Shown here: piece by piece, positions 5,489 to 57,710 of the stretch
Layout: each line of letters opens with the position of its first letter
Position numbering within the stretch: position 1 is the stretch's first letter
Assembly: GCA_017526785.1 (NCBI GenBank)
Contig: JAFXQV010000031.1
Location: 38,624-102,623 of the forward strand
Direction of reading: 5' to 3'
DNA from: Oscillibacter sp.
GTDB taxonomy: Bacteria > Bacillota > Clostridia > Oscillospirales > Oscillospiraceae
Length of the DNA: 64,000 nt
The notes under the pieces: model-generated
Database searches by the model: none
Told to the model about the DNA's origin: nothing
Seen by the model: the letters and a program-made list of their open reading frames with translations, nothing else
Position numbers and translations under genes: made by a program

Positions 5489-5848
5489 TCACGCCTCGGC
5501 GGACAGTCCGGCCTTTTCTCTTTCGAGCGCGGTTTCCTCGTTCTTAATCTCCCAGTGAATCAGAAACGTAAGCACGCCGCGCAGTACGATAATCGCGCCC
5601 AGAATGCCCAGTTCCGCCCACTCGCGCACAACGACCGTGCGGAGTACCTCGCCGCCCATCTTGAATTCCAGCGCGAGAGCGATTCCCTGCGCCAGCGTCA
5701 GACGGATTCCGGCCTGTTTCCGGAGCCACCTGTAGAAGCACCTGCCCGCCGTGGACACCAGCACACAAATGCCGAACAGTTCCATCAGCATTGTGCAGAC
5801 CTGTACCAGTTCGTACAGGAGTTCCTCCGCCGTCCCAATCCATGCCAT
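5489..5848 (-). CDS. DUF1622-type small membrane protein
   Basis: 119 aa with about three hydrophobic helices and an [15 protein letters not shown] motif. Lies 31 nt upstream of the CoA-transferase gene, so probably the same operon. Confidence 0.65.
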
Positions 5849-6006
5849 ACTATCCCACCCCCCTATGTGATTGCAATGCCGGATTCCGGCATATTCCGCG
5901 TTTCAGGATATACTATGACGCGGGAATTGTCAAGTACGGCGCGGCGCAATATGAAAACTACCAGAAGGACAATTGCGCCCTCCGGTAGTTTGGCGTTCCG
6001 CCGCGC

Positions 6007-7335
6007 TTACAGGATTCCCTCCCACGCGCGGCTTTGCTCGAAAAGCGACAGCATTTCACGGTCGACCGCGCCCTCCTCGACCATGCTGTGCAGGATAGAC
6101 AGCGCTCTTTCGGGCGGGAACGGCTTTTTATAGGGGCGGTCTTTCGCCGTCAGCGCCTCGAACACGTCCAGAATCGTCAACAGCCGCACTTCCATGGGAA
6201 TGGCGTCCGCCGTCAGGCCGTCGGGGTATCCGTGTCCGTTGAGTTGCTCGTGGTGCGCGGCCGACCATGTGGGGACATCCCTGTAGGAATCCGGGAAAGA
6301 GATGTGGCTGAGAATGCGCCCCGTGACGGCGGCGTGGCTTTGCATAACCGCCCGTTCGTCGGCCGTCAGCGTCCCCTTGCGAATGGACAGCTTCACGTAC
6401 TCGTCATTCGTAATCCACGGGCAGGTCACGCCGTGTTCGTCCGTATAAGTACGCGCCGCGAGCGCGTCCACGCGCCGGAAATCCTCGTCGGGGAGGAATC
6501 CGGCCTTGTTAATCCGCTCCACAAAGTCCCGGGTCTCCTCCAACTGCTGTCGGCGTCGGGCGGCCTCGTCGGCGTCGATTTGGCCTCTTGCTTCGGCGAG
6601 TTCGTCCAGCAGGCCTATCACGCGCAGGCGTTCCCGGACTTCCGGGAGGCTGTCGCCCAGACGGTCGGCCTTGTCCATGACGCTCAGCGGCACGGTCAGT
6701 TTTCCCACGTCGTGCAGCCACACACTCATCAGGAACGCCCGGCGCTTCTCGCCCTCGAACTGGCACGGGGCGTCCTTCCCGGGGAGCCAGTCCAAAAAGG
6801 CCTCGGCGAAACGCGCCATATTCTTTGTGTGGTTGGCGGTATAGGGGGAGCGCTCGTCGATGGCGCTGGACAGCGCCTCCACCATGGATTCCAGCAAGGC
6901 CGTAATCTGCTGATTCTTCGCCTCCACCTCGTTGCGCAGGCGGATAAGTTCACTGACATCCGCGAGAACGGCAATGACGCCGACGCGGCGGCCGTCGTCG
7001 GTCAGGAAAGAGGTCGTTACATGCAGATACTTCGTCGTTTCGCCGTCGAAATAGGGAACCACCGAGACATGGAGCGTGCCGCTTTCGTAAATCGCGTCAA
7101 GGACGGTCTGCGAGAAAGCGTCGTTTTCCTCGTACTCGAAGAAGAACCGGGCAAACGGCTTCCCGATGACCCTTTTTTCGGACAGTTGCAGGAGTTCGCA
7201 GGCCTTGGGGTTGATTTGCTCAATATGCCCGTTCAGCCCGATGACCACAACGCCGTCCGACATATCCCGGATAATGCGGTTTTGTATCAAATTTCTGTCC
7301 GCGTCCATTGTTCTCCCTTCCTTCATGCAAACCAT
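6007..7335 (-). CDS. PAS-domain HD-GYP phosphodiesterase (predicted c-di-GMP hydrolase)
   Basis: 442 aa. N-terminal PAS-like region (MSDGVVVIGLNGHIEQINPKACELL), then HDVGK...HHEQLNGHGYPDGL (HD plus GYP signature). An ATG at 7308 has a better RBS (GGAAGGGAG) and may be the true start. Confidence 0.85.
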   Translation of the reverse strand: MVCMKEGRTMDADRNLIQNRIIRDMSDGVVVIGLNGHIEQINPKACELLQLSEKRVIGKPFARFFFEYEENDAFSQTVLDAIYESGTLHVSVVPYFDGETTKYLHVTTSFLTDDGRRVGVIAVLADVSELIRLRNEVEAKNQQITALLESMVEALSSAIDERSPYTANHTKNMARFAEAFLDWLPGKDAPCQFEGEKRRAFLMSVWLHDVGKLTVPLSVMDKADRLGDSLPEVRERLRVIGLLDELAEARGQIDADEAARRRQQLEETRDFVERINKAGFLPDEDFRRVDALAARTYTDEHGVTCPWITNDEYVKLSIRKGTLTADERAVMQSHAAVTGRILSHISFPDSYRDVPTWSAAHHEQLNGHGYPDGLTADAIPMEVRLLTILDVFEALTAKDRPYKKPFPPERALSILHSMVEEGAVDREMLSLFEQSRAWEGIL

Positions 7336-7346
7336 GCAAGCGCGTC

Positions 7347-7772
7347 TTATTTGCGCTTACGGCTTGTGTCTTGCAGTTTCCGGCGTATGGTGAGGACGTT
7401 TTGGCCGTTCTCGTGGCGGTAGGAAACGGCGTCCATGCTCTTCTTGACCATGTAAATCCCCAGACCGCCGATTTCCCGCTCCTCGGCCGAGAGCGTCACG
7501 TCCGGGTCGGGACGCGCCAGCGGATTATAGGGCGTCCCCCAGTCCCGAAACGTGATTTCCGCGAAGCCGTCCGGGAACTCCATCTCAATGACCGCCTCGC
7601 CCGTCGCGCCGCCGTAGGCGTAACTGGCGATATTGGTAAAGAGTTCGTCCACGGCAATGTCGAGCTGTGTTTTTGACCTTATGCAACAGTCGTGCGCTTC
7701 CAGTTGCGCGTCCACAAAGGACATGACCTGTTCCGCGTTCTCCCGTTTCGCCTCAATTCGCAATGCAGGCAT
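7347..7772 (-). CDS. RsbW/SpoIIAB-like anti-sigma-type serine protein kinase (HATPase_c)
   Basis: 141 aa starting at MPALRIEAK. Contains DELFTNIASYAY and GGLGIYMVKKSMD (N and G boxes). GGAGG RBS. The ORF-track version (to 8219) is an Arg-rich artefactual extension that overlaps the phosphatase gene. Confidence 0.85.
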   Translation of the reverse strand: MPALRIEAKRENAEQVMSFVDAQLEAHDCCIRSKTQLDIAVDELFTNIASYAYGGATGEAVIEMEFPDGFAEITFRDWGTPYNPLARPDPDVTLSAEEREIGGLGIYMVKKSMDAVSYRHENGQNVLTIRRKLQDTSRKRK

Positions 7773-7789
7773 AAATTCCTCCGTTTCTG

Positions 7790-9439
7790 TCAGCGGAAGC
7801 GCAGGCAAAGCATAGTAATGTCGTCGAACTGCGGCGCGTCCTTCACAAACGCGTCGATATGTTCCCGTACGCCGCGGACAATCTCTTCGGGCGTCTCTTC
7901 GGCGTGGGCGTTGAGCGCGTTTAGCATGCGTTCCTCCCCGAACAGTTCCTCTTCCGCGCTGGTCGCCTCCGTCACGCCGTCCGTGTAGATGAAAAGCGCC
8001 TCCCCGTGGCCTAAATCCGTCTCGTTCTCGCGGAAACGCAGTCCCTCCATGGTGGCCAGCGGCGGACCGTGGCGCTCCTTCTGCAGGGCGAATTTCCCGC
8101 CCTCGCGGTAAAAGGCCGGGTACTCGTGACCCGCGCTGGCGGAAATCAAATGCCCCGTGGAAATCGTCAGGACGCCCATCCACACCGTGACAAACAGCTC
8201 CGCCTCGTTGCCCTCGCAAAGCTGGTTGTTCACGTCGGCCAGAATTTTTCCCGGGTGCATTTCCGTTCCGGCGGCCGCCTGCGCGCGGTTCTTAATCAGC
8301 GTCTTGGCAATGACCATGAACAGCGCGGCGGGGACGCCCTTCCCGGACACGTCCGCCATGACCATTCCAAAGTGGTCGTCGTCAATCATGAAGAAGTCGT
8401 AGAAGTCGCCGCCGACCTCCTTGGCGGGATTCATGGAGGCGTAAAGTTCAAATTCCGGCCTTCCGGGATTGACCGGGGTAATGTGCGGCAGCATGTCCGC
8501 CTGAATCTTCGTGGCCACGTTCAGTTCCGCGCCGATACGTTCCTTTTCGGCGGAGACTTTCAACAGGTTCTGCATAAAGCGCTTCATGTCCTGCGACATG
8601 GAGCTGAACGCGTCGGAAAGCGACTCCAGTTCGTCCCCGGTGTGGATGTCGGGGTCTTGGAACACAAGCGCGTCGGGGTTCTCCTGCCCCTGACTGCTTT
8701 CCACGAAACCTTGTGCGGATTCTTCCAGCTTTATCATGGGCGCGACAATCCGGCGGTTGAGCCAGCGGTACATGATAGACAGTGACAGCGTTGCTAAAAT
8801 CACGATTTCCGTCAGCACAATCAGAATGTACCTGACCAGCGTGGTGATAATCTCCTCCATGCTTAAATCCGCCGCCAGAATCGCCACCGCGTTCCCGGCG
8901 TTATCGAGAATGGGGAGCAGTCCCGTGTACATATAGCCGAATTCCGTGCGGTTGCGGTAGTAGCTGACTTCCGTGCTACCGTCCATCCGGTTCAGGTACT
9001 GTTGGACGACTTCCGGGGAATAGCTGTCTCCCGTCAGCCCGCCCAGTGTGACGGAATCGCCGCCGTTATATTCCTCCCGTTCCTCATTCGTCATGCCCGC
9101 CATCACGTCCATCATGTTGTCGGTTTCGTTCAGGTTCAGGGGCTTTTCAATGCAGACAAATGTAAAATCGTACTCCTGTTTTACGCGGTCGAGGAAATTC
9201 TGCGTCCGCCGGAAGGCCTCGGATTTCTCCCCGCTTTCAATACAGCCTTTCAAGTCCTCCCCGTCGATTTCCGTCAAGGTCAGGCGCAAAGCGTCCCCAA
9301 TGTAGGTCTGATACTTATCCACCATCCCCCGATAATAGATGAAAAAGCTCAGAACGGCGAGCGTGAGGCACAGAAAAGCCACGAACACCCCGCAACCCAG
9401 CAAAATACTGCGCCGGAGAGGATTCCGGTATTCCTTCAT
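7790..9439 (-). CDS. Membrane-bound sensor PP2C (SpoIIE/RsbU-type) serine phosphatase with periplasmic-type domain and HAMP
   Basis: Two TM segments flank a roughly 170-aa extracytoplasmic region, followed by a HAMP-like linker and a PP2C core (GGDFYDFF, ADVSGKGVPAALFM, TDGVTEA). Start placed at ATG 9439 with an AGGGAGCGAGGA RBS; the ORF track extends to 9484. Confidence 0.88.
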   Translation of the reverse strand: MKEYRNPLRRSILLGCGVFVAFLCLTLAVLSFFIYYRGMVDKYQTYIGDALRLTLTEIDGEDLKGCIESGEKSEAFRRTQNFLDRVKQEYDFTFVCIEKPLNLNETDNMMDVMAGMTNEEREEYNGGDSVTLGGLTGDSYSPEVVQQYLNRMDGSTEVSYYRNRTEFGYMYTGLLPILDNAGNAVAILAADLSMEEIITTLVRYILIVLTEIVILATLSLSIMYRWLNRRIVAPMIKLEESAQGFVESSQGQENPDALVFQDPDIHTGDELESLSDAFSSMSQDMKRFMQNLLKVSAEKERIGAELNVATKIQADMLPHITPVNPGRPEFELYASMNPAKEVGGDFYDFFMIDDDHFGMVMADVSGKGVPAALFMVIAKTLIKNRAQAAAGTEMHPGKILADVNNQLCEGNEAELFVTVWMGVLTISTGHLISASAGHEYPAFYREGGKFALQKERHGPPLATMEGLRFRENETDLGHGEALFIYTDGVTEATSAEEELFGEERMLNALNAHAEETPEEIVRGVREHIDAFVKDAPQFDDITMLCLRFR

Positions 9440-9508
9440 TCTTCCTCGCTCCCTTCTATTCAAAACATTCTCTGCCAAAAGCACGGAACGATTTTCGGTT
9501 TTTGCAAA

Positions 9509-10630
9509 TTACGCCGGGCTTTCGTAGCCCTCGTAGTTGCCGTATTCCTTCCACTGCAACGGCGCGAAGTAAAACATATGAATCCCGTCGCCGCTGAGAA
9601 GTTCCGGAATCAGAATGCAGCCCATATGCAAGGCGTTCTTGTGCGCTTTTTTGCATTTACGATAAGAGTCCGTCTCATCCATGCTGTTCACCTCAAGAAT
9701 ATTTTCCACGCCGAAGAGATAAAACGGCAGGGCAGGCATGGAAATATAATCTTTGACGGGTTCCAGTTTTTCCGGCAGACGCGTCAGACTTCTGAGAACT
9801 TTGTTGCGTTCGATATAGGCGGCGCGTTTTTCATACCAGAGTTTCAGCGCCGCTGGGTCGCGCCGGTGGACACAGGCGAAACGCGCAATCTGAAACCGCG
9901 CCTGTAATTTTCCGATAACGTCCAGATACATGTCCGCAATGCGGTTCAGGATTTCATCGAACTGCTCCAAGGCCTGTTTTCGGACGTTCTCCGGAATCGC
10001 GTCCAGCGCGTACAGGAGATATTTCCGGTAGGACATATCCGGGATAGGCACCACCAGCGAACCCCGAAGGGCGGCGGCAATCTCGAAGGGGTAGCGAAGA
10101 TTCAAATATTCCTGCGGCGTCAAGCCCTGTTTGTTCTGCTGGAAATCAATCCGTTCCACGCGCTCCCCGTTCAGGCGGAGATAGTCCGCCAGCCCCTCCG
10201 ATTCCGCGAAGGCGGTTCCGTCGAGATAGGCTTTCCCGTTGGCGTAGTCGAACAGGCGTTCTTCACCCCCGCCTTTCAGGCGTACGGATACCGTTACCTC
10301 GTGTTCCCCGAACAGGCACGGACCGCCCTCGACCGCGATTGTCTCTCCGCGTTCCATTGCCTCCGTCAGCGTGTCCAGACCGCCGACAAAGTAGGGGAAT
10401 TTCTCCCGGCTCTTATATTGGACGCTCGCGAAAGCCGGGAACGCCTCCGCCGCCTGTTGAAAGTCCATGACATCGGCGCATTGCTTGAAATGCAGTTTTC
10501 CGCCGTTCCACTCGTAGAAGTCCCCGGAAATCAGGCGAAAATTGAGCATGTCCCGATTGCAACAGACATAATCCGTTTCCTCTAAGACACGCCCTTTATG
10601 GGCAATCATCTCTTGAATCGTATATTCCAC
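9509..10630 (-). CDS. Hypothetical protein (373 aa) with no recognisable family, embedded in the partner-switching operon
   Basis: GTG start 17 nt after the STAS stop, with GGAG upstream. No TM segment and no motif I recognise. Amino-acid composition looks coding. Confidence 0.7.
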   Translation of the reverse strand: MEYTIQEMIAHKGRVLEETDYVCCNRDMLNFRLISGDFYEWNGGKLHFKQCADVMDFQQAAEAFPAFASVQYKSREKFPYFVGGLDTLTEAMERGETIAVEGGPCLFGEHEVTVSVRLKGGGEERLFDYANGKAYLDGTAFAESEGLADYLRLNGERVERIDFQQNKQGLTPQEYLNLRYPFEIAAALRGSLVVPIPDMSYRKYLLYALDAIPENVRKQALEQFDEILNRIADMYLDVIGKLQARFQIARFACVHRRDPAALKLWYEKRAAYIERNKVLRSLTRLPEKLEPVKDYISMPALPFYLFGVENILEVNSMDETDSYRKCKKAHKNALHMGCILIPELLSGDGIHMFYFAPLQWKEYGNYEGYESPA

Positions 10631-10647
10631 GTCAAGTCTCCGCAGTC

Positions 10648-10953
10648 TTACTCAATGTTCAGCAGGTCGACGAAGCCCGTGACCTCGAAGACCTCCATCA
10701 CGGCCTCGTTGACGTTGCGCACGGTCATTTCCCCCTGCTTGTTCATGATTTTCTGGGCGGAGAGCAGGACGCGCAGTCCGGCCGACGAGACGTAATCCAG
10801 CGCCTTCAGGTCGACCGTCAGATTTTCCACGCCGTCGGCGAGGGCGGGGCGGAGTTCGGCTTCCAGTTGCGGGGCGGTCGTGGTGTCCAGACGGCCTTCC
10901 AGCGTGAGTGTCAAATCCGCGCCGTCGCGGTTCATGTTGATTGTCATTGCCAT
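10648..10953 (-). CDS. STAS-domain anti-sigma-factor antagonist (RsbV/SpoIIAA-like)
   Basis: 101 aa. Contains DLKALDYVSSAGLRVLL with the conserved phosphorylatable Ser context. AAAGGAG RBS. Confidence 0.9.
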   Translation of the reverse strand: MAMTINMNRDGADLTLTLEGRLDTTTAPQLEAELRPALADGVENLTVDLKALDYVSSAGLRVLLSAQKIMNKQGEMTVRNVNEAVMEVFEVTGFVDLLNIE

Positions 10954-11038
10954 TGTAAGGTTCTCCTTTCAAAATCAGCGCTTTTGTTGCTGGCGAAACT
11001 GAAATCATAACAGGCCTTGACAAAACCTCGACATTCCC

Positions 11039-11067
11039 TTGACACGCCATATGAATTCGAGTATAAT
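11039..11067 (+). promoter_or_regulatory. Consensus SigA promoter upstream of the MscS-family gene
   Basis: TTGACA (11039-11044), 17 nt, TATAAT (11062-11067). Confidence 0.65.
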
Positions 11068-11186
11068 TCCAGAAGCCGCCATTCTCCAACCCGGGACTTT
11101 CAAAGGGTCTGTTTCTTGCGCATAATAGCGCAAATCCCGCGAAATGTCAAGTCAACAATCCAATTGAAAAGGAGGTTTGTTTCCTA

Positions 11187-12173
11187 ATGAAAGACGCCGA
11201 TTACAATGCCTCGGCGGAACATGGTGACAGACTTGCCCGGCATACGCCGGGAGACTCCGCACCTCCCACCGTGACAGAGCGGCTTCGCGGCGCGGTCGGA
11301 ATCCTCGTGCTTGCCGCCTACTATGTCCTGCTCGTTGGCGGGCAGTATTATTTTGACGGCACAAGCGAATTTTACCGCAGTCTGAACATTTTTTCCGGCG
11401 CGGGAGACCCCGACCCGCTGGTCAGAATCGTAAGCTGTATCGTCTTTTTTTATGGCGTCAGCCGAATTTCCAAGTTTCTCCTGTCCAGATTCGCGCTCAG
11501 CAAAGTGGCCTCCCGGAAAATGGGGCGGGCGCTGATGGGGCTTCTGGGCAGCCTGATTCAATACGCCTGCGGGATTGCCGCCGGGCTGATGGTACTTAAT
11601 ACGCTTGGCGTGGACACTATGGAAATTGTGGCCGGGCTGGGCATTCTCACTTTGATTATCGGCCTTGGCGCGGAGGAACTGGTGGCCGACATCTTGGCGG
11701 GTATCTTCATCGTCTTTGAACAGCTCTATGACGTGGGGGACATCATCGTAGTGGACGAGTTCCGCGGCACGGTCAAGGAAGTGGGCATCCGCACCACGCA
11801 GATTGAGGACATCGGCGGCAACACGCTCGTGGTACGCAATTCGGAAATCGGCTCGTTCATCAATATGACGGACAAACTTTCCATCGCCAACTGCGACGTG
11901 CAGATTGGCCACGGGGAGAACTTGGAGACCGTGGAGGCCGCGTTAGAGTCGGAGCTTGCGGGTACGGGGGCGGCCATCCCGGAACTGCTGGAGGGGCCGT
12001 TTTATATCGGCATTTCCGTCATAACGGAGGCCGGCATGGTGCTTAGCTTTACGGCCAAGTGTGAGGAAGGCGCGAAATACCGCGTGGAGCGCGCCATGTA
12101 CCGCCAGTTAAAACTTCTCTTTGACCGGAACCAGATTGAGATTGTGGGCGGCACGCCGGAGGCCGAGGATTAA
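11187..12173 (+). CDS. Mechanosensitive ion channel, MscS family
   Basis: 328 aa. TM helices followed by GLGAEELVADILAGIFIVFEQLYDVGDIIVVDEFRGTVKEVGIRTT (MscS pore helix plus beta domain). Confidence 0.88.
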   Translation: MKDADYNASAEHGDRLARHTPGDSAPPTVTERLRGAVGILVLAAYYVLLVGGQYYFDGTSEFYRSLNIFSGAGDPDPLVRIVSCIVFFYGVSRISKFLLSRFALSKVASRKMGRALMGLLGSLIQYACGIAAGLMVLNTLGVDTMEIVAGLGILTLIIGLGAEELVADILAGIFIVFEQLYDVGDIIVVDEFRGTVKEVGIRTTQIEDIGGNTLVVRNSEIGSFINMTDKLSIANCDVQIGHGENLETVEAALESELAGTGAAIPELLEGPFYIGISVITEAGMVLSFTAKCEEGAKYRVERAMYRQLKLLFDRNQIEIVGGTPEAED

Positions 12174-12200
12174 GCGCGCTTATGGGAGGAGCGCACCGGA

Positions 12201-13724
12201 ATGCGAAACCGTGAGTTGAACAACGTCCGGATTGGCAATCCGGACGGAATGTGGAAAAAATCCCGCGAACCCAACAAACTTTCCCTCAAAAACATGCGCC
12301 ACAGAGCCATACCCGAGGATTCGTCCCGCGCGTTCCGCGAAACAACCCGTGTCCGGGAGTTTTACAAACGGTCGCGCACAAAAAAACCGCGCGAAAAGTC
12401 AAAAAAACGGACACAAAACAGCGTGGTTTCCAAAGGCGCGTCCATGGCCGGACACGCCCTGATGATGGTGACGGCGGTCGTGTTCTGCTCGTTCGTGTAC
12501 GTCTCATCTCTGACAATCCGCGTCAGGCCGTGTTCGAGCATGGCGCACGCGCTGGCGTTCCAGACCTCTTTCCGCAACCCGGACAGTACCCCGCTTCGGG
12601 CGGAACTCTACGCCGGAGAGGAAACCTACTCCAAGGATTTCGTGGGCGTGGCGTACCTGCTCTTCGATGGGCTTACCGAAAAGACCGCGTACGGGCTTGA
12701 CATCGTGAACATCGAGACGGAGGAGAAAATTTATCAATCCACGTTTCTGACGGCGGAGGAAGACCCGTACCAGATTCGGGTGGAAAACCCGCGCATGACC
12801 GAGGATGGACTGTTTGAGTTTGGGCTTTCGGTCAGCGGACTGGACGAGGGCGCGTTCTATACGGTTTACGTGATGGACGAAAACGGGAAAAAAATTGCCG
12901 TTATGGACTGTTCCGACACAAACACGTCCTTTTCGATACCAATCAAATCGTTTATTCCGCCGTCAGACGAACCGGGACAGCCGTCCGGCGGCACACAATC
13001 CCCGTCCGGGCAAACCGGGCGGCCGTCCGGCGGCACACAATCCCCGTCCGGGCAAACCGGGCGGCCGTCCGGCGGCACACAATCCCCGTCCGGACAAACC
13101 GGGCAGCCGTCCGGCGGAACACAGTCCCCGTCCGGACAAACCGGACAGCCGACACCCGACGGGAATGTACCGCCGTCCGACGAAACACAGCCGCCGCCCG
13201 ACGAGAATGTGCCGCCGTCCGACGAGACACAGCCAACGCCCGAACCGGATATGGATACCCTGCCCTTTATCACCGTCAAAATCGACGGCAATATATTTCT
13301 CCCGCGCGTCTGGGGACAGGAGCCGGAACCGATTCCCGAAACCAACGAGGAAAGCGCCGCCGAACCGTTAAGCCCCGACAATGTCGAGTGGGTATGGAAC
13401 GAGGAACACACCGAGGTCGAAGCGCTGATACCCAACCCCGAAAACCCCGAAGAGCCGGAAATCGTCCGGGCGGAGGTCACGGAAGCGGTCGCGAAGGAGC
13501 CGGGATGTGAGGAAGAAGGCCTTGCCGTGTATACGGCGAGCGTCCCCGGGCAGGACGGCACCGAATACAGCGACGTGCAAACGGCCGTCATCCCGCCGAC
13601 AGGCCACCACTATGAGCGCGTCAAACTCGACGAGACGCCAAGCGGAACCTCCGCCGAATACGTCTGCCCGGACTGCGGAAAGTCGTACTCCATTGACGTT
13701 TCCGCGACAGAAGAGCCGGATTAG
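12201..13724 (+). CDS. Single-pass membrane protein with basic N-terminus, Pro/Ser/Gly/Gln tandem repeats and a C-terminal CxxC motif; function unknown
   Basis: 507 aa. GGAGG RBS. TM segment HALMMVTAVVFCSFVYVSS at about aa 85-105. Four PSGGTQSPSGQTG(R/Q) repeats. C-terminal YVCPDCGKSY. Confidence 0.6.
   Translation: MRNRELNNVRIGNPDGMWKKSREPNKLSLKNMRHRAIPEDSSRAFRETTRVREFYKRSRTKKPREKSKKRTQNSVVSKGASMAGHALMMVTAVVFCSFVYVSSLTIRVRPCSSMAHALAFQTSFRNPDSTPLRAELYAGEETYSKDFVGVAYLLFDGLTEKTAYGLDIVNIETEEKIYQSTFLTAEEDPYQIRVENPRMTEDGLFEFGLSVSGLDEGAFYTVYVMDENGKKIAVMDCSDTNTSFSIPIKSFIPPSDEPGQPSGGTQSPSGQTGRPSGGTQSPSGQTGRPSGGTQSPSGQTGQPSGGTQSPSGQTGQPTPDGNVPPSDETQPPPDENVPPSDETQPTPEPDMDTLPFITVKIDGNIFLPRVWGQEPEPIPETNEESAAEPLSPDNVEWVWNEEHTEVEALIPNPENPEEPEIVRAEVTEAVAKEPGCEEEGLAVYTASVPGQDGTEYSDVQTAVIPPTGHHYERVKLDETPSGTSAEYVCPDCGKSYSIDVSATEEPD
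12981..13148 (+). repeat. Four copies of a 42-bp in-frame tandem repeat
   Basis: Near-identical units CCGTCCGGCGGCACACAATCCCCGTCCGGGCAAACCGGGCGG, read directly from the sequence. Confidence 0.9.
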
Positions 13725-13763
13725 TTTTCCTTACCCCGCAATGAATCAGTAGAAAGGAGACAT

Positions 13764-15608
13764 ATGAAGAAAAAACGCACTTTAAAGGAAAAGTTCCTGT
13801 ACTGGCTTGACGAAAAGATGTCGGAAGGCAGTCTGGGTCTCATCAAACTGCTGACAATCGTCACCACGATTACGGCACTCATTGTCGCGTTCGTTATGCA
13901 GGCAGGCGGAATCCTCGTCAGCGGCGAATATGACACGTTTGGCGCAAGACTGTGGGCGAGTTTCTCATCGATTATCAACTGCTTTATGCCGTACTATGAC
14001 GATGGCGATGTGAAATACCGTTCGTTGATTGCGTTCAACACCATTTACAGCCTGTTCGTTACCAGTTTCCTGATTGGTATTATATCCACCGGAATCCAAG
14101 GGAAAATAACCAGCCTGAAAAAAGGCAATGTCCCCATCATGGAGGAAGGCCATATCGTGGTACTGGGCTTTGAACCCGGCGAGTATTCGCTGATTCAGGA
14201 GCTTGTCTATGGGGCGGACAAACGCGCTGTCTGTATCGTGGTGGCGGGCGAGACCGACCGCGAGGAAATGGAGGAGTGTATCCGGGACAACGTGAAGTGT
14301 CCGAAGAACGTGCGGATTCTCTGCCGCTCTATTAACATTTTCGACCCGCACACTTTGGAGCGCTGTTCCATTTCCACCTGTCGTACGGTTTTAATCAATC
14401 CCACGGACAATGACCGGACAATCCGCATGTTGCTGGCCGTCACCATGATTCTGCACCAAGTCCCGGAACGCGGGATAAGCACAATCGCGGTACTCTCGAA
14501 AGACGATTACCGCATTCCCCCGGCCATGCTCGATAAATATCGTATCATGCTTCTGCACACAAACGACACCATTGCCAAAATTATGGCGCATTCCTGCACA
14601 CAGCCGGGACTCTCCAAGACTTTGCTGGAAATGTTCCATTTCGAGGGTTCGGAAATGCACATCGTTTCCCTGCCCGGCACGGAAGGCCTGACGTTTGAGG
14701 AACTCATCTGCCGCGTGGACGACGCCTCCCCGCTGGGAATCTACAAGGGCGAGGAATTGCATCTCAATCCTGACCCCGCCATGGTACTGGAACCGGGCGA
14801 CAAACTGCTGGTCTTTTGCGAGGAAAGCGACAGCGCGAAGTTCGTGGACGCCCCCGCACTGCCGCCCGTCGAATCGCTTCCCGCTTACAGCGGTACGGAG
14901 GAATCCGGGCGCGTGGTCATTATCGGATACAGCGCCTTTCTTTCCACGATTCTGTATGAACTCCCGGAGAACGTCCCCGCCGCCACGCTGGTGAACGTGC
15001 CGGAACAGTTCCGGGAGGAATCCCTGAAAGCGGCGGAGAAGCGGGAAACAAAAATGTCCGTCTCCTTCTTTGACAAGGACATGTCCAACTTGAACGCGCT
15101 GGAAGAACTGGCGAAAGAGGCCGACCATATCGTTCTGCTCTCCGCCTACAACAAGCCGGACGACGAAGCCGACTTGCAGAACATCTTTATGATTATGGCG
15201 CTCCGGGACATCCGGGAACGCCTGAATCTGAACTTCAACATCACAACGGAAATGCGCCGCGAAAACAACCAGAATCTTCTGATACCCGCTCCCGACACGG
15301 AATTTTTAGTTTCGTCCAACATGTCGTCCCTGTTCCTTGCGCAACTGTCGGAAAGCCCGGAACTGCTCTCGGCGTTCGACGAGCTTCTGACCAACGAGGG
15401 CAGCGAAGTCTACCTCAAAACGGCGGCGGAACTGCATTGCGAGGGTACCCGGACAGTGCTGGAACTGCGGCGGCGTCTGTTGCCACTGCGCCACCTTATG
15501 ATTGGCTGGATGGACGGCGATACATTGGATTGCACGTTTGAGCTCTCCCTGTCCGACACGCTCAATCTGAAGCCCCACGACAAGCTGATTGTCATCAGCG
15601 AAGACTGA
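13764..15608 (+). CDS. CASTOR/POLLUX (DMI1)-related putative cation channel with tandem RCK-like domains
   Basis: 614 aa. N-terminal TM/pore region, then HIVVLGFEPG...ETDREEMEECI...LCRSINIFDP...CRTVLI, which parallels the HIxILGW...ERDKEEME...ICRSGSP...ARAIxVL pattern of CASTOR/POLLUX. Confidence 0.7.
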   Translation: MKKKRTLKEKFLYWLDEKMSEGSLGLIKLLTIVTTITALIVAFVMQAGGILVSGEYDTFGARLWASFSSIINCFMPYYDDGDVKYRSLIAFNTIYSLFVTSFLIGIISTGIQGKITSLKKGNVPIMEEGHIVVLGFEPGEYSLIQELVYGADKRAVCIVVAGETDREEMEECIRDNVKCPKNVRILCRSINIFDPHTLERCSISTCRTVLINPTDNDRTIRMLLAVTMILHQVPERGISTIAVLSKDDYRIPPAMLDKYRIMLLHTNDTIAKIMAHSCTQPGLSKTLLEMFHFEGSEMHIVSLPGTEGLTFEELICRVDDASPLGIYKGEELHLNPDPAMVLEPGDKLLVFCEESDSAKFVDAPALPPVESLPAYSGTEESGRVVIIGYSAFLSTILYELPENVPAATLVNVPEQFREESLKAAEKRETKMSVSFFDKDMSNLNALEELAKEADHIVLLSAYNKPDDEADLQNIFMIMALRDIRERLNLNFNITTEMRRENNQNLLIPAPDTEFLVSSNMSSLFLAQLSESPELLSAFDELLTNEGSEVYLKTAAELHCEGTRTVLELRRRLLPLRHLMIGWMDGDTLDCTFELSLSDTLNLKPHDKLIVISED

Positions 15609-15615
15609 CAAGCCG

Positions 15616-15650
15616 CGCCCTCCCGGAGCAATTCGGGAGGGCGTTTCGTT
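15616..15650. terminator. Bidirectional terminator hairpin between convergent genes
   Basis: Stem GCCCTCCCG/CGGGAGGGC (15617-15625 / 15634-15642), followed by TTTCGTT. Confidence 0.65.
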
Positions 15651-16017
15651 ATACCAGTTGGGCGTGGGGCAGGCCGAAACTGACGGCGATTGCCGCGTCT
15701 ACTTTGGTCATCATGTTCTCCTCAATGTGTCCCATCCGTTCGCGCAGACGCTTTTTGTCGAGCGTGCGAATTTGCTCAAGCAGAATGACGGAGTTCCGGC
15801 TGAGGCCGGAGTTCGCGTTGACAGGAAGGTCTATGTGAGTGGGGAGGCGCGCCTTCCCTGTCTGGGAAGTAATCGCCGCCGCAATCACAGTGGGGCTGTA
15901 GCGGTTGCCGGTATCGTTCTGGATAATCAGCACAGGCCGGACGCCGCCTTGTTCACTGCCTACCACGGGGGAGAGGTCGGCGTAGTAAATATCGCCGCGT
16001 TTGACAGTCGTATCCAC
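15649..16017 (-). CDS. mazF: MazF/EndoA (NdoA)-type mRNA interferase toxin
   Basis: 122 aa, GTG start. Contains [29 protein letters not shown]...[10 protein letters not shown], the typical PemK/MazF fold signature. Sits downstream of alr, as in Bacillus. Confidence 0.92.
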
Positions 16018-16209: not shown

Positions 16210-17385
16210 TTAGGCCTGTCCCAAAATCCTGAGACTGCGTTCCGTGACCCGTCCGTGTTCCATGTAGAGGCGGGGAACGCGCTTGCTGACGGCGCAGACA
16301 AGTTCGTATGGAATCGTGTCCAGCATGGCGGCGAGGGCGTCGGCGGACTGGTGCGCGCCGAATACCTCCAACGCGTCGCCGACGTGGACTTCCGGCAGTG
16401 CGGACAGGTCAACCATGGTCATGTCCATGCAGATACGCCCCAAAATCGGCGCGGAGCCGTACGGCGTCCAGAGTTCGAGGCGGTTCGAGAAACCCCGGAA
16501 AAGTCCGTCGGCGTAGCCGATGGGCAGTACCCCGACGCGGCGTCTGTCCGGGGTGCGGTACATGCGTCCGTAGCTGATGGGCGTGTCCGCGTCAAAGACC
16601 TTAATCGTCGATACGCAGGAGTACAGCGACATCACCGGGCGCAGTCCGAGTGCGGCGGCGTCGTCGCCGAGGCCGTAGAGCGCGATACCCGGGCGCACCA
16701 TGTCCAGATACGTTTCGGGGTAGCGGGCTAACGCGCCGCTGTTGGCGCAGTGCCGAAGGCGGAAACGGCGTCCGCGTTTGGCGAGCGCGTCCAGCACGTC
16801 CGTAAAGACCGAAAACTGTTCCATGGCGTAGGCGCGGTCGCCGGGTTCGTCGGAATCGGACGTGGAGAAGTGCGTGAAGATGCCCTCTGCGTCGAGGCAC
16901 GGCAACGCGCAGGCCTTGGCGATAGCGTCCACGCCGCCCGCGAAGTGTTCCCCGCGCACCAGAAAGCCTAAGCGCGACATGCCCGTATCCACTTTGATAT
17001 GTACCCGCAGGACGCCGCCGGACGCTTCCGCCGCCTGACTGTATTCCTCCGCCTTGGCCAGCGCGGAGACGGTCTGCGTCAGATTGTGGCGAATCAGTTG
17101 GGGCGTCATTTCGGGGGGCGTGTGGCCGAGAATCAGCACGGGCGTTGTAATGCCGCCGCGCCGGAGTTCCCGCGCCTCGTCGAGACTGGACACGGCCAAG
17201 TAGTCACAGCCCAACATCTGGAGTTTCCGCGAGACCTGTAGCGCCCCGTGGCCGTAGGCGTCGGCCTTGACGACGCCCAAGTAGCGGACATCCGCGCCGA
17301 TTTTGTCCCGCGCCGCGCGGTAGTTGTGGGACAGGGCGTCCAAGTCGATTTCCGCCCACGTCCGGCGCAGTATTTCTTCTTCCAT
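16210..17385 (-). CDS. alr: Alanine racemase
   Basis: 391 aa. Contains VVKADAYGHGA (PLP lysine) and the C-terminal YGR...GRICMD pattern. Confidence 0.95.
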   Translation of the reverse strand: MEEEILRRTWAEIDLDALSHNYRAARDKIGADVRYLGVVKADAYGHGALQVSRKLQMLGCDYLAVSSLDEARELRRGGITTPVLILGHTPPEMTPQLIRHNLTQTVSALAKAEEYSQAAEASGGVLRVHIKVDTGMSRLGFLVRGEHFAGGVDAIAKACALPCLDAEGIFTHFSTSDSDEPGDRAYAMEQFSVFTDVLDALAKRGRRFRLRHCANSGALARYPETYLDMVRPGIALYGLGDDAAALGLRPVMSLYSCVSTIKVFDADTPISYGRMYRTPDRRRVGVLPIGYADGLFRGFSNRLELWTPYGSAPILGRICMDMTMVDLSALPEVHVGDALEVFGAHQSADALAAMLDTIPYELVCAVSKRVPRLYMEHGRVTERSLRILGQA

Positions 17386-17412: not shown

Positions 17413-18015
17413 TCAAGAAACCGTTTCCTCCATTATATCAGAAAACGCGAACGATGTAAAGTCCGCCGTCATTACAGTTTGGTCGTCGACGGCGATTTCC
17501 CCGCGCAGTGGGGTTCCGTCCGACTGCTTCAGCCAGAGCGTGTAAAACAGTTTCCCGCCCGCCGCGCCGGACGTGTCCACGGTCAGCCGTACGCATGGGA
17601 CGCCGTTCCAGTCCTCGGCGTTTTGTTCCAAAAGCCAGCCGTCGCGGAGCGCGTCCAGAAGCGCCGGGAGCGCGTCCGCCGGACTGAGCCCCTCCGCGCT
17701 GACGCGTCCGGCGTTCAGACGCCGCCCGTCGGCCTGCAACTGCCGGGCGTCGCCGTCGAGAATCACCTTGACGCCCGCTATCGTGTCGGGCGACACCACC
17801 TCTATGACGCGTTCGCCGTCGGGCGCGTACGCGCACTGCAACACGGCCTCCCAAGGCGCGCCGTACTCCGTACAGCGTACCGTTGCCGTCATGTCACAGC
17901 CGCGCATGGCCTGATAGCGCGCGCGGAGCGCGTCCGCGCCGTTCTGGCGTTCCCCGCCGCAGGCCGAAAGCGCCAGACACGCGATTATCATTTGTGCGAA
18001 AAAACGCTTTCGCAC
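17413..18015 (-). CDS. Lipoprotein, YdcC-like (possible LolA-fold)
   Basis: 200 aa. Lipobox LALSAC. Its position between the nnr-type gene and alr mirrors B. subtilis ydcC. Family assignment rests on synteny only. Confidence 0.5.
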   Translation of the reverse strand: MRKRFFAQMIIACLALSACGGERQNGADALRARYQAMRGCDMTATVRCTEYGAPWEAVLQCAYAPDGERVIEVVSPDTIAGVKVILDGDARQLQADGRRLNAGRVSAEGLSPADALPALLDALRDGWLLEQNAEDWNGVPCVRLTVDTSGAAGGKLFYTLWLKQSDGTPLRGEIAVDDQTVMTADFTSFAFSDIMEETVS

Positions 18016-27017: not shown

Positions 27018-27923
27018 TCACTTTTTCGCGGCGGCGGGTTTGCCGGATTTCGCGGCGGCGACTTCCGCCGCTTTCTTTTTGGCCTCGGCCGCCTTTTTCT
27101 TGACTTCCTTGTACTTTTCCTTTTCCTCCGGCGTGGCGGCCGGGGTAATGGCGTCTCGCGGACAGACTTTCGTGCAGAGTTTGCAGTTGATACACTTCGC
27201 GTAGTCGATGGACGCGATACCGTCGACAACGTGGATTGCGTCCTTTTTGCACTCGCGTTCGCACAGTCCGCACCCGATACAGGAATTTTCGCAAACGGTC
27301 ATAGCGGCCTTGCCCTTTTCCTGATTCAGGCACAGCACGCGAACCTTTTTCGACACGGGTACCGACACAATCAGCTTGCGCGGACACGCCGCCGCGCAGG
27401 CCATACAGTCCGTGCACTTGTCCTCGTCGACGACCGCGACACCGTTCGCGCCGATACTCATTGCCCCGAACTGGCAGGCCTTCACGCAAGAGCCGAAGCC
27501 CAGACAGCCCCACGCGCAGTCGAGCGGCCCCGCCGCGACTTTCTCCGCGGCCGTGCAGTCCTGAACGCCGACATACTCGAAGCGCTTCACGGCGGCGGTT
27601 CCGCCGTTGCAACGGACAAAGGCCACTTCCCGTTCGCCGACAGTGGCGGTCTGTCCCATAATTTCGGCGATAGCGGCGGCGGCGTCAGCGCCGGCGGGGG
27701 CGCAGGCCGTCACAGGCGCGTCGCCCGCGACAATCGCCGCCGCACAGCCCGCGCAGCCCGGATAACCACAGCCGCCGCAATTCGCGCCCGCCAGTTTGCT
27801 TAAGACCGCCTCCTCGCGGGGGTCTTTCTTGACCTCGAAGATTTTGGAGGCCACCGCCAGCAGAGCGCCGAACAACGCGCCCAGCAGTCCGAGTACGAGT
27901 ACGGCGGACAATACGTTTAACAT
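27018..27923 (-). CDS. rnfB: Rnf electron-transport complex subunit B (polyferredoxin) with Lys/Ala-rich tail
   Basis: 301 aa. N-terminal TM helix, CGGCGYPGC cluster, and several CxxCxxCxxxCP motifs. Last about 40 aa: EEKEKYKEVKKKAAEAKKKAAEVAAAKSGKPAAAKK. Confidence 0.92.
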   Translation of the reverse strand: MLNVLSAVLVLGLLGALFGALLAVASKIFEVKKDPREEAVLSKLAGANCGGCGYPGCAGCAAAIVAGDAPVTACAPAGADAAAAIAEIMGQTATVGEREVAFVRCNGGTAAVKRFEYVGVQDCTAAEKVAAGPLDCAWGCLGFGSCVKACQFGAMSIGANGVAVVDEDKCTDCMACAAACPRKLIVSVPVSKKVRVLCLNQEKGKAAMTVCENSCIGCGLCERECKKDAIHVVDGIASIDYAKCINCKLCTKVCPRDAITPAATPEEKEKYKEVKKKAAEAKKKAAEVAAAKSGKPAAAKK

Positions 27924-27936
27924 GGTTCAGCCCCCC

Positions 27937-29222: not shown

Positions 29223-29240
29223 GTGTCGCGCCTCCTTTCG

Positions 29241-57653: not shown

Positions 57654-57678
57654 GAGGGGACGCTTCCCCATCAAATCA

Positions 57679-57710
57679 CCCTCCGGGAGAAATTCCGGAG
57701 GGCTTGTTTC
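57679..57710. terminator. Bidirectional terminator between the nitroreductase gene and relE
   Basis: Stem CCCTCCGG/CCGGAGGG followed by CTTGTTTC. Confidence 0.55.

Follow-up and report, generated by a model that had tools for sequence, protein, structure and literature searches.

A partner-switching operon in a rumen Oscillibacter joins a PP2C phosphatase to an undescribed protein family and ends in a predicted PAS-HD-GYP phosphodiesterase

In a 64,000-nt stretch of DNA from a rumen Oscillibacter (hereafter the window), we analyzed five co-directional minus-strand genes encoding, in order, a STAS protein, a 373-aa protein (U373), a membrane PP2C phosphatase, an RsbW-like kinase, and a PAS-HD-GYP protein (Table 1). 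All five were judged to be real from open reading frames, domain matches, and NCBI calls, the latter including identical proteins of the same lengths from an Oscillibacter sp. MAG (MBR4545973-75, of 433, 141, and 549 aa, and MBR4545977 for STAS); the PP2C was 100% identical to MBR4545975.1. Translation of PP2C truly begins at the ATG at 9439 rather than the GTG at 9484, and that of PAS-HD-GYP at the ATG at 7308, which carries a ribosome-binding site within an open reading frame reaching 7335. The promoter-like site, which matches the consensus at 11/12 positions about 170 nt 5' of the STAS start codon, was unchanged across three related contigs, and an Rfam search of the leader 5' of STAS returned no family even at E<=1. 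Between this site and the weak terminator-like hairpin 24 nt 3' of the HD-GYP stop codon, no minus-strand promoter-like site was found, and three weak terminator-like hairpins within the operon all lie inside coding sequence. A separate promoter-like site (5933-5905) precedes the next gene, DUF1622 (5489-5848). A preliminary description of this DNA had reported five co-directional genes with all three partner-switching parts, which gene calls, Pfam, and catalytic signatures bore out, and gaps of 11-24 nt, which we correct to 17, 69, 17, and 38 nt from STAS to HD-GYP. That five genes spaced 17-69 nt apart are bracketed by one promoter-like and one terminator-like site was counted in favor of the partner-switch reading given at the end.

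Table 1. Features of the locus and its upstream flank (window coordinates)
Feature	Position	Strand	Remarks
Terminator-like hairpin, weak	5964..5983	-	3' of HD-GYP
PAS-HD-GYP phosphodiesterase (predicted)	6007..7308	-	433 aa; Pfam PAS + HD_5
RsbW/SpoIIAB-type GHKL serine kinase (HATPase_c_2)	7347..7772	-	141 aa; PF13581 1e-21
Membrane sensor PP2C phosphatase	7790..9439	-	549 aa; PF07228 (SpoIIE) 6e-46
69-nt spacer	9440..9508	-	scar of ~3 kb MFS-fusion gene deletion
U373	9509..10630	-	373 aa; GTG start; predicted cytoplasmic; undescribed family
STAS anti-sigma-antagonist-type protein	10648..10953	-	101 aa; PF01740 3e-17, PF13466 (STAS_2) 1.5e-17
STAS Ser57 codon	10783-10785	-	motif DYVSSAGLRV; predicted phosphorylatable Ser
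Promoter-like site	11122..11150	-	TTGACA-17-TATTAT
MscS, repeat protein, Castor/Pollux-like channel genes	11187-15608	+	between mazF and operon
mazF	15649-16017	-	same strand as operon
alr	16210-17385	-	same strand as operon
"ydcC-like" ORF	17413-18015		no Pfam match

With NCBIfam ant_ant_sig, the STAS protein scored 77 bits (cut-off 53). The serine context proposed earlier as phosphorylatable was upheld, Ser57 aligning with the phospho-serine of both RsbV (6M36) and SpoIIAA, and the motif Y[IV]SSxGLR was kept in 11 STAS proteins of both module types described below (third position alanine in 9). The kinase aligned with SpoIIAB weakly, over its full length, with N box (ExxxN), G1 (DxG), and G2 (GxG) kept. 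Its assignment to the RsbW/SpoIIAB type holds at the level of PF13581 and these boxes, but its NCBIfam equivalog scores lay far under the cut-offs for RsbW (34 vs. 145 bits) and SpoIIAB (25 vs. 135 bits); likewise, window proteins fell under the cut-offs of all the RsbW, SpoIIAB, SpoIIAA, and SpoIIE equivalog models.

The PP2C has predicted transmembrane helices at aa 12-30 and 205-223. In its AlphaFold model, the intervening aa 31-204 form an extracytoplasmic mixed alpha/beta PAS/Cache-like domain and aa 224-316 a helix-loop-helix HAMP-like linker, followed by the PP2C/SpoIIE catalytic domain (aa 320-549), in which the metal-binding Asp motifs GGDFYD, ADVSGKG, TDGVTE, and FDDIT are kept. Of the extracytoplasmic domain and HAMP that had been ascribed to this protein, the model recovered the first, and the second as a HAMP-like linker; the Pfam HAMP family was unmatched in the window protein and was hit solely in the orthologue from locus L055. 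Its closest structures were Pseudomonas aeruginosa RssB, the RsbU domain of Rv1364c, and SiaA, whose PP2C domain (6K4E) ranked first among PDB sequence matches and among the top matches by fold.

The PAS-HD-GYP protein, with PAS at about aa 11-118 and HD-GYP at about aa 135-425, belongs to a family of >1600 members of ~430 aa each. Pfam matches and the motifs LHDVGK and HHEQLNGHGYP, read directly in the sequence, confirmed that the operon ends in such a protein. An insertion of ~95 aa lies within the HD-GYP domain, between the HD and HHExxxGxGYP motifs. The best PDB sequence matches were V-cGAP3 (5Z7C), PA4781 (4R8Z), and PmGH (4MCW).

U373 had no match in Pfam, NCBIfam, PADLOC, or PDB sequences. 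Its homologues comprised 236 clusters (136 representatives), and the alignment held 62 invariant columns, including EGGPCLFG, PDMSYRKYL, KDYISMPALP, and RKCxxxH. In a Foldseek search of its AlphaFold model (pLDDT 91.4, pTM 0.91) against the PDB, the top 50 matches were all TyrRS or TrpRS (E 4e-5 to 2e-3, TM up to 0.47), and a BFVD structure search agreed. The fold of U373 is thus predicted to resemble that of class Ic aminoacyl-tRNA synthetases (TyrRS, TrpRS), without the anticodon-binding domain. Among 23 aligned members, neither HxGH (HIGH) nor KMSKS was conserved: a KMSKS-like match occurred in none, and an isolated Hx G[HN] in two, at non-equivalent positions.

U373 is the signature of a conserved Firmicutes module to which the window PP2C belongs. 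Among 37 U373 loci with enough flank, scored for genes within ±6-9 kb, a multi-sensor MFS protein of ~990 aa came after U373 in 34, and a full-length PP2C orthologue (E 1e-93 to 1e-301 along residues 1-548) in 30; a kinase was present in 12 and STAS in 5. These U373-MFS-PP2C loci span Oscillospiraceae, Lachnospiraceae, Erysipelotrichaceae, Selenomonadaceae, and Anaerovoracaceae, with two loci from Coriobacteriia, and the MFS-fusion protein has two extracytoplasmic domains, one resembling the PP2C sensor. The protein once set down as an extra of unknown family does lack Pfam and NCBIfam matches, but it marks the phosphatase's own module and is not an add-on. Since the PP2C family is far larger (>=8000 matches vs. 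236 clusters for U373), U373 is its optional partner. About two thirds of the loci had no kinase within the scored distance and most lacked STAS; the PP2C may thus act on a different substrate at these loci. The kinase gene lies directly 5' of U373 in nine loci, in seven as a free-standing gene, and fusions of PP2C to kinase (L055, L060) and of MatE to kinase (L019, L027) were found in related modules. An MscS channel gene recurs beside the module in 11 loci, and a stand-alone LPG_synthase_C gene (aminoacyl-tRNA transferase family) recurs near it in Oscillospiraceae.

In the window lineage, the MFS gene was deleted and U373 was retained. By BLASTN against L005 and L078, both of which carry the 990-aa gene between U373 and PP2C, the window sequence skips from the U373 3' end to ~30 nt 5' of the PP2C start. 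Conservation of the operon was confined to near relatives: L072 shows the arrangement, as does L078, where the MFS gene is retained, but the gene after the kinase varies in other Oscillospiraceae. In L005 it encodes a 5'-nucleotidase; in L080/L077, ~10.6 kb separate the kinase from the start of HD-GYP farther downstream, which comes about 2 kb after another ~8 kb of genes; and the genes found more steadily beside HD-GYP in L077-L079 encode a C39-peptidase ABC exporter and a 74-aa protein. Outside the window's clade, an HD-GYP gene never adjoined the U373 module.

To assess the link between switch and HD-GYP from the other side, we analyzed the neighborhoods of PAS-HD-GYP orthologues in dereplicated clusters. 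A STAS, PP2C, or kinase gene lay within 3 kb at 9/28 loci, compared with 0/40 for control HD-GYPs that have different N-termini (Fisher p=1.4e-4). Locus L099 holds a two-gene STAS-HD-GYP unit between opposite-strand genes; such pairs also occur at L084 (where the pair is isolated), L102, and L141. At L094, PP2C is followed after 16 nt by HD-GYP, and L116 carries a PP2C-kinase-STAS-symporter-HD-GYP cluster. STAS proteins encoded beside HD-GYP genes shared up to 55% identity with the window STAS, on a par with those of U373 modules from other families. No protein fusing STAS or kinase to an HD-GYP domain was found, and 15/24 PAS-HD-GYP clusters with >=1.5 kb of flank had no nearby switch gene. 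Gene neighborhoods lend independent support to a functional tie between such a switch and the PAS-HD-GYP family. The earlier proposal that the output is c-di-GMP degradation gains from this enrichment, but adjacency is patchy even within the clade. As the preliminary description, aware of no characterized HD-GYP-coupled partner switch, would lead one to expect, no description of one was found in the literature searched.

The HD-GYP could instead be a mere syntenic neighbor, with the switch regulating, or being regulated by, U373 (and the MFS protein in relatives), in which case its business would be envelope transport or small-molecule handling and not c-di-GMP. We regard this as rather unlikely, though as the most serious of the alternatives. 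It draws on the co-occurrence of U373, MFS fusion, and PP2C in 30-34/37 loci against the confinement of HD-GYP adjacency to one clade, on the variable gene after the kinase within that clade, on the nine kinase-U373 neighbors and the MatE-fused kinases, and on the symporter inside the L116 cluster and the recurrent MscS. However, it leaves unexplained the enrichment of switch genes near PAS-HD-GYP in unrelated contexts, including STAS-HD-GYP pairs without U373, and in the window 38 nt, free of promoter- and terminator-like sites, separate the kinase gene from HD-GYP.

It seems improbable that this is a conventional anti-sigma/anti-anti-sigma switch with its sigma factor encoded elsewhere and U373 and HD-GYP as passengers. 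The kinase's only solved sequence relatives are SpoIIAB, its best NCBIfam matches are RsbW and SpoIIAB, and our inspection covered 64 kb of the genome; yet its scores fall far short of both equivalogs, and fusion of its domain to PP2C or a MatE transporter fits non-sigma roles. The claim that no sigma factor follows was sustained, with none among the window flanking genes tested, no sigma-like family recurring at 64 related genome loci, and no linked sigma factor at about 28 HD-GYP loci. A descent from a rewired SigB-type module had also been suggested, from a position downstream of ydcC-like/alr/mazF genes on the same strand. While alr and mazF do share the strand, three plus-strand genes intervene, the "ydcC-like" identity found no backing in Pfam, and alr/mazF proximity was seen at 0/80 loci examined, so the idea is unsupported. 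We give similarly little credence to U373 being an active class Ic synthetase-derived enzyme, like cyclodipeptide synthases, whose aminoacyl-derived product would be exported by the MFS protein and sensed by the Cache-like domains of that protein and the PP2C; the switch would then be fed by an autocrine or quorum-type loop. Cyclodipeptide synthases also lack HIGH, KMSKS, and the anticodon-binding domain, and their top structural neighbors (1ZH6, 1J1U, 3HZR) are U373's own matches (PMC3105412). Moreover, the invariant polar and Cys/His residues of U373 may form a catalytic or metal site, its usual neighbor is the two-sensor MFS protein, and the LPG_synthase_C gene recurs nearby. However, sequence similarity of U373 to synthetases or cyclodipeptide synthases was undetectable, the latter were only weak fold matches (E 0.03-0.2), and U373 was kept where the MFS gene was lost. 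U373 further differs from both groups in having its own invariant motifs and in occurring in a signaling module rather than in the translation machinery or a biosynthetic cluster.

Among known systems, SiaABCD of P. aeruginosa comprises the PP2C SiaA, the kinase SiaB, the switch protein SiaC, and the diguanylate cyclase SiaD; the phosphorylation state of SiaC is set by the membrane PP2C and dedicated kinase, and SiaC directly binds the c-di-GMP enzyme (PMC8457831). The likeness claimed earlier extends to a membrane PP2C with HAMP-type linker and a dedicated kinase that in the window would act on a small switch protein, and to the 6K4E match, but the window PP2C scored 82 bits against the SiaA equivalog cut-off of 700. 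In addition, SiaD output is synthesis (GGDEF) whereas the window's would be hydrolysis, SiaC is a DUF1987 protein phosphorylated on Thr68 rather than a canonical STAS with Ser57, and U373 and the MFS protein have no counterpart. A canonical STAS antagonist that binds a c-di-GMP enzyme depending on Ser56 phosphorylation is known in P. aeruginosa HsbA (PMC5085249), and this HptB-HsbR-HsbA-HsbD arrangement, like BgrV, resembles what we propose for the window. Its target is, however, a cyclase, its kinase and phosphatase reside in one phosphorelay-driven response regulator, HsbR, and HsbA has also kept its action on the anti-sigma factor FlgM. The Bacillus RsbU/RsbV/RsbW-sigmaB and SpoIIE/SpoIIAA/SpoIIAB-sigmaF systems share the SpoIIE-type PP2C, STAS, HATPase_c_2 kinase, and phospho-serine context, but the window lacks a sigma factor gene, RsbR/S/T, and the RsbU N-domain, its phosphatase input is a transmembrane PAS/Cache-like sensor, its equivalog scores are under cut-off, and its alr/mazF linkage is unconserved. 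In Bacillus subtilis, the alpha/beta hydrolase RsbQ is required to activate RsbP, so that there, too, a partner-switching PP2C gene adjoins a dedicated enzyme-fold accessory gene. The alpha/beta-hydrolase fold of that accessory, the cytoplasmic location of RsbP, which has a PAS domain, and the sigmaB output set this pair apart from the window operon. Within Clostridia, Quin et al. reportedly described in 2012 a Moorella thermoacetica Rsb-type kinase/phosphatase/STAS module wired to c-di-GMP signaling and not to a sigma factor. That system is said to be a stressosome (RsbR/S/T-type) with GGDEF output, without membrane PP2C sensor, HD-GYP, or U373. A structure search returned PDB 3ZT9, whose entry title names a M. 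thermoacetica stressosome module controlling a diguanylate cyclase.

We favor, at about even probability, a partner switch that targets c-di-GMP hydrolysis instead of a sigma factor, with U373 as the ancestral companion of the phosphatase. Counted in its favor are, by analogy, the known cases of c-di-GMP enzymes under STAS-type control (SiaC-SiaD, HsbA-HsbD, BgrV), together with the PP2C::kinase fusions, the U373-PP2C co-occurrence, and the kept catalytic and phospho-acceptor signatures; the patchy HD-GYP adjacency within the clade and the 15/24 clusters without switch genes count against the c-di-GMP reading. Judging by domain homology, the PAS/Cache-like domain of the PP2C would sense an extracytoplasmic signal and relay it through the HAMP-like linker, the kinase would phosphorylate STAS Ser57, and the PP2C would dephosphorylate it. 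Gene neighborhoods suggest that the phosphorylation state of STAS would then select its binding partner, kinase or PAS-HD-GYP, and that U373 would be an ancestral companion of the PP2C, accompanied in most relatives by the multi-sensor MFS protein. U373 is most likely an input-side PP2C accessory that binds or makes a ligand, or a second output. Loss of the MFS gene in the window lineage would have united STAS, U373, PP2C, kinase, and HD-GYP in one tight transcription unit. Through the choice of partner by STAS, the switch would thus set how fast c-di-GMP (or cGAMP) is hydrolyzed, and such control of an HD-GYP would mirror STAS-like control of diguanylate cyclases in Proteobacteria.

Pfam backs four of the five proteins of the operon (E 1e-17 to 6e-46), and proteins MBR4545973, -74, -75 and -77 from an Oscillibacter sp. 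MAG are identical to operon proteins, with lengths that agree for three; NCBI starts the STAS gene at the second Met, giving 99 aa. The intergenic gaps, put at 11-24 nt in the preliminary description, are actually 17, 69, 17 and 38 nt. Between the promoter-like site and the terminator-like hairpin that flank the operon (11122 to 5983), no minus-strand promoter-like site was found, and three weak terminator-like hairpins lie within coding sequence. The ~170-nt leader was considered as a riboswitch and rejected, with no Rfam match at gathering scores window-wide or at E<=1 for 10900-11250; in close relatives the leader is 95% identical, too alike for a structure test. A role in anti-phage defence was likewise set aside, as PADLOC returned no match for any of the five operon proteins.

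Features of the operon and of related loci (L numbers denote related genome or metagenome loci; U373 is the 373-aa operon protein)
Feature	Sequence	Position	Strand	Remarks
Promoter-like site, near-consensus	window	11150-11122	minus	5' of operon
STAS	window	10648-10953	minus	101 aa; Pfam match
U373	window	9509-10630	minus	373 aa; no Pfam or NCBIfam match
PP2C	window	7790-9439	minus	549 aa; Pfam PF07228, 157 bits
HATPase_c_2 kinase	window	7347-7772	minus	141 aa; PF13581, 77.5 bits vs cut-off 27.4
PAS-HD-GYP	window	6007-7308	minus	433 aa; HD_5, 99 bits
Terminator-like hairpin, weak	window	5983-5964	minus	3' of operon
MFS fusion	L005	9132-12107		missing from window at 9440-9508
MFS fusion	L001	9135-12050
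MFS fusion	L078	3798-6770
5'-nucleotidase-like; LPG_synthase_C	L005	14211-15893; 16047-16988		also at L012, L014, L076, L080
74-aa ORF	L077	10321-10545
74-aa ORF	L078	10326-10550
74-aa ORF	L079	2810-3034

All three partner-switching parts are present, as had been proposed: a STAS protein, a HATPase_c_2 kinase and a SpoIIE/RsbU-type PP2C phosphatase, each with its signature motifs. Ser57 of the STAS protein (DYVSSAGLRV), where a phosphorylatable Ser context had already been noted, aligned with the phospho-serine of RsbV and SpoIIAA and was invariant among 11 related STAS proteins. The N, G1 and G2 boxes of the kinase (ExxxN, DxG, GxG) were kept in an alignment with SpoIIAB, and the phosphatase kept all four Asp-containing metal-binding motifs when compared with SiaA and RssB. 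Among solved proteins it is closest to SiaA, P. aeruginosa RssB and the RsbU domain of Rv1364c, and its model matched the folds of RssB, Rv1364c, SiaA, RsbX and SpoIIE. Two TM helices are predicted, and in the AlphaFold model (pLDDT 77) a PAS/Cache-like alpha/beta domain lies between them and a helix-loop-helix follows TM2. For this protein as a HAMP-linked membrane sensor, helices and an extracytoplasmic domain are thus predicted, and the HAMP domain is inferred only: the window protein has no Pfam HAMP match and a weak NarQ-type match (18.5 bits), and L055 was the only orthologue with a Pfam HAMP match (2e-4). Judged by these motifs, the switch parts of the operon look functional. Fused forms also occur, namely PP2C::kinase proteins at L055 (3265-5391) and L060 (4087-6162) and, directly upstream of U373, a MatE transporter with a C-terminal HATPase_c_2 domain (L019:8116-9861, L027:4961-6712).

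The PAS-HD-GYP enzyme carries the HD metal motif LHDVGK and the sequence HHEQLNGHGYP, in which N takes the place of D in the HHExxDGxGYP signature. It aligns with V-cGAP3, PA4781 and PmGH, has a ~95-residue insertion within the HD-GYP domain, and its best solved relative is cGAMP-specific; its predicted substrate is c-di-GMP or cGAMP. A sensor/HAMP region resembling that of the window PP2C is fused straight to an HD-GYP domain at L021:4449-6632 and L140:209-2200, and these fusions are a one-protein version of the pathway proposed below. A further candidate fusion, the 752-aa "long" HD-GYP representative P0171, was discarded: its N-terminal 320 residues are low-complexity and unlike every module protein, so that a miscalled start is most likely. 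In relatives, PAS-HD-GYP is also followed by a conserved 74-aa ORF that Pfam does not match, together with a C39-peptidase ABC exporter; the window lacks both.

We then examined U373, which the preliminary description had called an extra protein of unknown family. The family indeed has no Pfam or NCBIfam match, but it is not extra, since it marks a conserved U373-MFS-PP2C module. Its homologues form 236 clusters, nearly all unnamed, with 136 representatives among 1.84 billion proteins, and an alignment of 23 members contains 62 invariant columns. Scanning GTDB genomes yielded 64 loci, in Oscillospiraceae, Lachnospiraceae, Erysipelotrichaceae, Selenomonadaceae, Anaerovoracaceae, Peptococcaceae and two Coriobacteriia; of all loci used in this analysis, most lie on contigs of MAGs or metagenomes. 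To detect neighbours, phmmer and jackhmmer were run with window proteins against raw locus ORFs, and counts were taken over the 37 loci with enough flank. A gene of ~970-1000 aa lay directly 3' of U373 at 34/37 loci, and an orthologue matching the window PP2C over its full length, including the sensor domain, was found at 30/37; the kinase was found at 12 and the STAS gene at five. No other neighbour family recurred strongly, the commonest being ABC transporters (8 loci) and MscS (6 loci). With at least 8000 strong matches, the PP2C family is far larger than the U373 family, so the dependency of U373 on PP2C is one-way. U373 is the key to the module.

The ~990-aa neighbour (MFS fusion) looks like a sensor-bearing transporter. 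It is predicted to start with a TM helix, a ~290-aa extracytoplasmic domain and two TM helices, after which come a Cache-like domain that resembles the sensor of the PP2C, one more TM helix and, at the C-terminus, an MFS domain; the repeat pattern of the ~290-aa domain is beta-propeller-like by eye. Judged against L005 and L078, the window lineage has undergone a clean deletion of this gene, and across the 69-nt spacer left in the window the end of U373 is linked directly to a point ~30 nt before PP2C starts.

Several further genes recur around these modules. MscS-type channel genes lie beside U373 modules in three families, in 11 locus records but ~8 distinct places (L001, L002 and L016 coincide, and L074 is near-identical to L075); they include window 11187-12173, L008, L010, L011, L014, L016, L032 and L071, and some are divergently transcribed. 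A Castor/Pollux-like TrkA_C channel gene (window 13764-15608) is recurrent in the window clade (the window lineage and its close relatives). Such channel neighbours could point to a signal of osmotic or envelope origin. ORF 12201-13724 encodes a 507-aa protein with no Pfam match that is conserved in L071, L074 and L075; it contains 42-nt tandem repeats (12966-13243; 4.4 copies at 93% match, then 2.4 of a second unit) encoding PSGGTQSPSGQTG(R/Q). In Oscillospiraceae relatives, a 5'-nucleotidase-like gene (~560 aa) and a stand-alone LPG_synthase_C gene, of the aminoacyl-tRNA-dependent transferase family, occur around the U373 module in variable order.

As for the fold of U373, its AlphaFold model (pLDDT 91.4, pTM 0.91) retrieved TyrRS or TrpRS structures as all 50 of the top 50 Foldseek matches in the PDB (E 4e-5 to 2e-3; probability 0.96-1.00, being 1.00 in 47/50; TM 0.24-0.47), and a search of the viral library BFVD was concordant. 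The class I signatures were not conserved: a KMSKS-like match was present in 0/23 members, and no HIGH-type HxG[HN] motif was conserved, with isolated matches in 2/23 at positions 268 and 334. In the model the protein ends ~30 residues past the last core strand, which would leave no room for an anticodon-binding domain. There was no Pfam tRNA-synt match, the U373 profile found nothing among PDB sequences at E<=10, and no TrpRS or TyrRS genes occurred in the collected loci. A sequence link to synthetases was rejected after hhalign comparison with E. coli TrpRS and M. jannaschii TyrRS (probability ~0). Cyclodipeptide synthases are a known class Ic catalytic fold lacking ATP motifs, with nearest structures shared with U373 (PMC3105412). 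Membership of that family was also rejected, there being no Pfam match, BFVD matches only at E 0.03-0.2 and none in the PDB top 50. With a TyrRS/TrpRS-like fold, neither conserved class I signatures nor sequence similarity, and a weak cyclodipeptide synthase match, U373 is therefore best described, on the strength of its model, as a new synthetase-fold family. One representative, the 806-aa protein P0307, couples an eCIS_core (DUF4157) domain (112-186) with the C-terminal half of U373 (611-801), a hint that the latter can stand as a domain of its own, possibly an effector-like one. P0362 and P0364, cadherin-like repeat proteins matched distantly by the U373 profile, were discarded as apparent beta-sandwich or compositional matches.

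Is the HD-GYP enzyme part of the switch? The main rival explanation is that it is a bystander and that the switch serves U373 and transport. The claimed five-gene operon does recur, the same five genes being found in L072 (U373 91% identical), but as such its conservation is shallow. In L078 (76%) the order is STAS-U373-MFS-PP2C-kinase, then HD-GYP after 133 nt by ORF ends (153 nt by database gene calls), the 74-aa gene and the C39 ABC exporter. In L005 (79%) the kinase is followed by the 5'-nucleotidase-like and LPG_synthase_C genes, and in L080/L077 (one contig) a nucleotidase-like gene, three large genes (one with SLH domains) and a 53-aa ORF come in between, so that the HD-GYP gene begins only ~10.6 kb downstream of the kinase. 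An adjacent PAS-HD-GYP gene was found at 0/37 of the U373 loci with enough flank. Taken alone, this shallow conservation and patchy adjacency within the window clade suggest mere synteny. Against it stands a scan of metagenomes with aligned PAS-HD-GYP orthologues, which gave 80 more loci, dereplicated at 90% identity. In this survey the proposed linkage reappeared: a STAS, PP2C or kinase gene lay within 3 kb of PAS-HD-GYP in 9/28 clusters, compared with 0/40 control clusters of HD-GYP proteins with other N-termini recovered in the same scan (Fisher p 1.4e-4; 8e-4 when the window clade is left out). The arrangements differ: STAS-40 nt-HD-GYP standing alone as a pair, with opposite-strand genes on either side (L099), STAS-67 nt-HD-GYP (L084/85), STAS-HD-GYP also in L102 and L141, PP2C-16 nt-HD-GYP (L094), and PP2C, kinase, STAS, a sodium:dicarboxylate symporter-family protein (522 aa) and PAS-HD-GYP (L116:1-5079). 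This variety argues for repeated selection rather than a single inherited accident. STAS proteins adjoining HD-GYP keep the Ser57 motif, with up to 55% identity to the window STAS; co-divergence of STAS and HD-GYP over seven loci gave a Pearson coefficient of 0.70, driven by three close pairs, and a Spearman coefficient of 0.15, which carries no information at depth. The L116 locus is a second type of five-gene cluster, with a transporter in U373's place.

Sigma factors are the textbook targets of partner switches, although a few proteobacterial switches act on diguanylate cyclases instead. A conventional switch whose sigma factor is encoded remotely is a further alternative, less likely than a bystander HD-GYP. 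In keeping with the original call, there is no sigma factor among the genes that flank the operon in the window (DUF1622, acetyl-CoA hydrolase/transferase, CarD and IspD/F on one side; MscS, a proline-rich repeat protein, the Castor/Pollux-like channel, mazF and alr on the other), and no sigma-like family recurs among neighbours at the 64 loci. Equivalog scores fell far under their cut-offs for RsbW (33.8 vs 145), SpoIIAB (25.1 vs 135), SpoIIAA (50.2 vs 114.75) and likewise SpoIIE. Descent from a SigB module had been suggested from alr and mazF; both genes are real, but between them and the operon lie three opposite-strand genes, Alr and MazF were unmatched at all 80 related loci compared, and we dropped the idea.

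Elsewhere in the window, six minus-strand genes (27018-32256), the first with an RnfC signature, the last with an RnfB signature and four putative membrane-protein ORFs of expected sizes between them, are most likely an ordinary Rnf (RnfCDGEAB-type) electron-transport cluster, which confirms the anaerobic Oscillospiraceae background. A riboflavin operon (ribD 58580-59704, ribBA 60374-61573, ribH) has a ~560-nt gap upstream, and Rfam gave no FMN riboswitch match upstream of ribD (57600-58700) even at E<=1; a riboflavin operon lacking one is unusual for Firmicutes.

We propose, from homology, that a signal would act through the Cache-like/HAMP PP2C to dephosphorylate Ser57 of the STAS protein, opposed there by the RsbW-like kinase. 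From the gene neighbourhoods, the STAS protein, or the kinase that it frees, would bind PAS-HD-GYP and alter hydrolysis of c-di-GMP (or cGAMP). U373 would be an ancestral partner of the phosphatase that acts at its input or serves as a second output. In a far more speculative extension, which we consider improbable, U373 would found a new family of proteins derived from class Ic synthetases and would produce or bind a signal of aminoacyl or nucleotide origin, and the MFS fusion and PP2C would complete a self-contained loop of production, export and sensing that sets STAS phosphorylation and, through it, c-di-GMP hydrolysis by a dedicated PAS-HD-GYP. If true, a partner switch would for the first time be shown to act on a phosphodiesterase, and a synthetase-fold protein in Firmicutes would for the first time have a role in signalling.

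The SiaABCD system of Pseudomonas, to which the operon had been likened, differs in having a DUF1987 switch protein and a GGDEF output in place of STAS and HD-GYP, and the SiaA equivalog score is far below cut-off (82 bits vs 700). Another STAS-type control of a c-di-GMP cyclase is reportedly that of the Moorella stressosome. Such control of cyclases is already known from SiaC-SiaD, HsbA-HsbD and BgrV (PMC8457831, PMC5085249). As anticipated, we found no description of an HD-GYP-coupled partner switch in the literature consulted, nor one of the U373 family, the latter judged from its having no Pfam/NCBIfam model or source names and, on the literature side, from work on cyclodipeptide synthases. 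To our knowledge, c-di-GMP-type signalling is almost unstudied in gut and rumen Clostridia. If real, a switch wired to HD-GYP would extend partner-switching logic to c-di-GMP degradation and to these bacteria, and U373, a conserved, unannotated family whose genes are tightly linked to those of a sensor phosphatase and an unusual MFS protein with sensor domains in dozens of Firmicutes from gut and rumen, offers a testable way into a signalling module.
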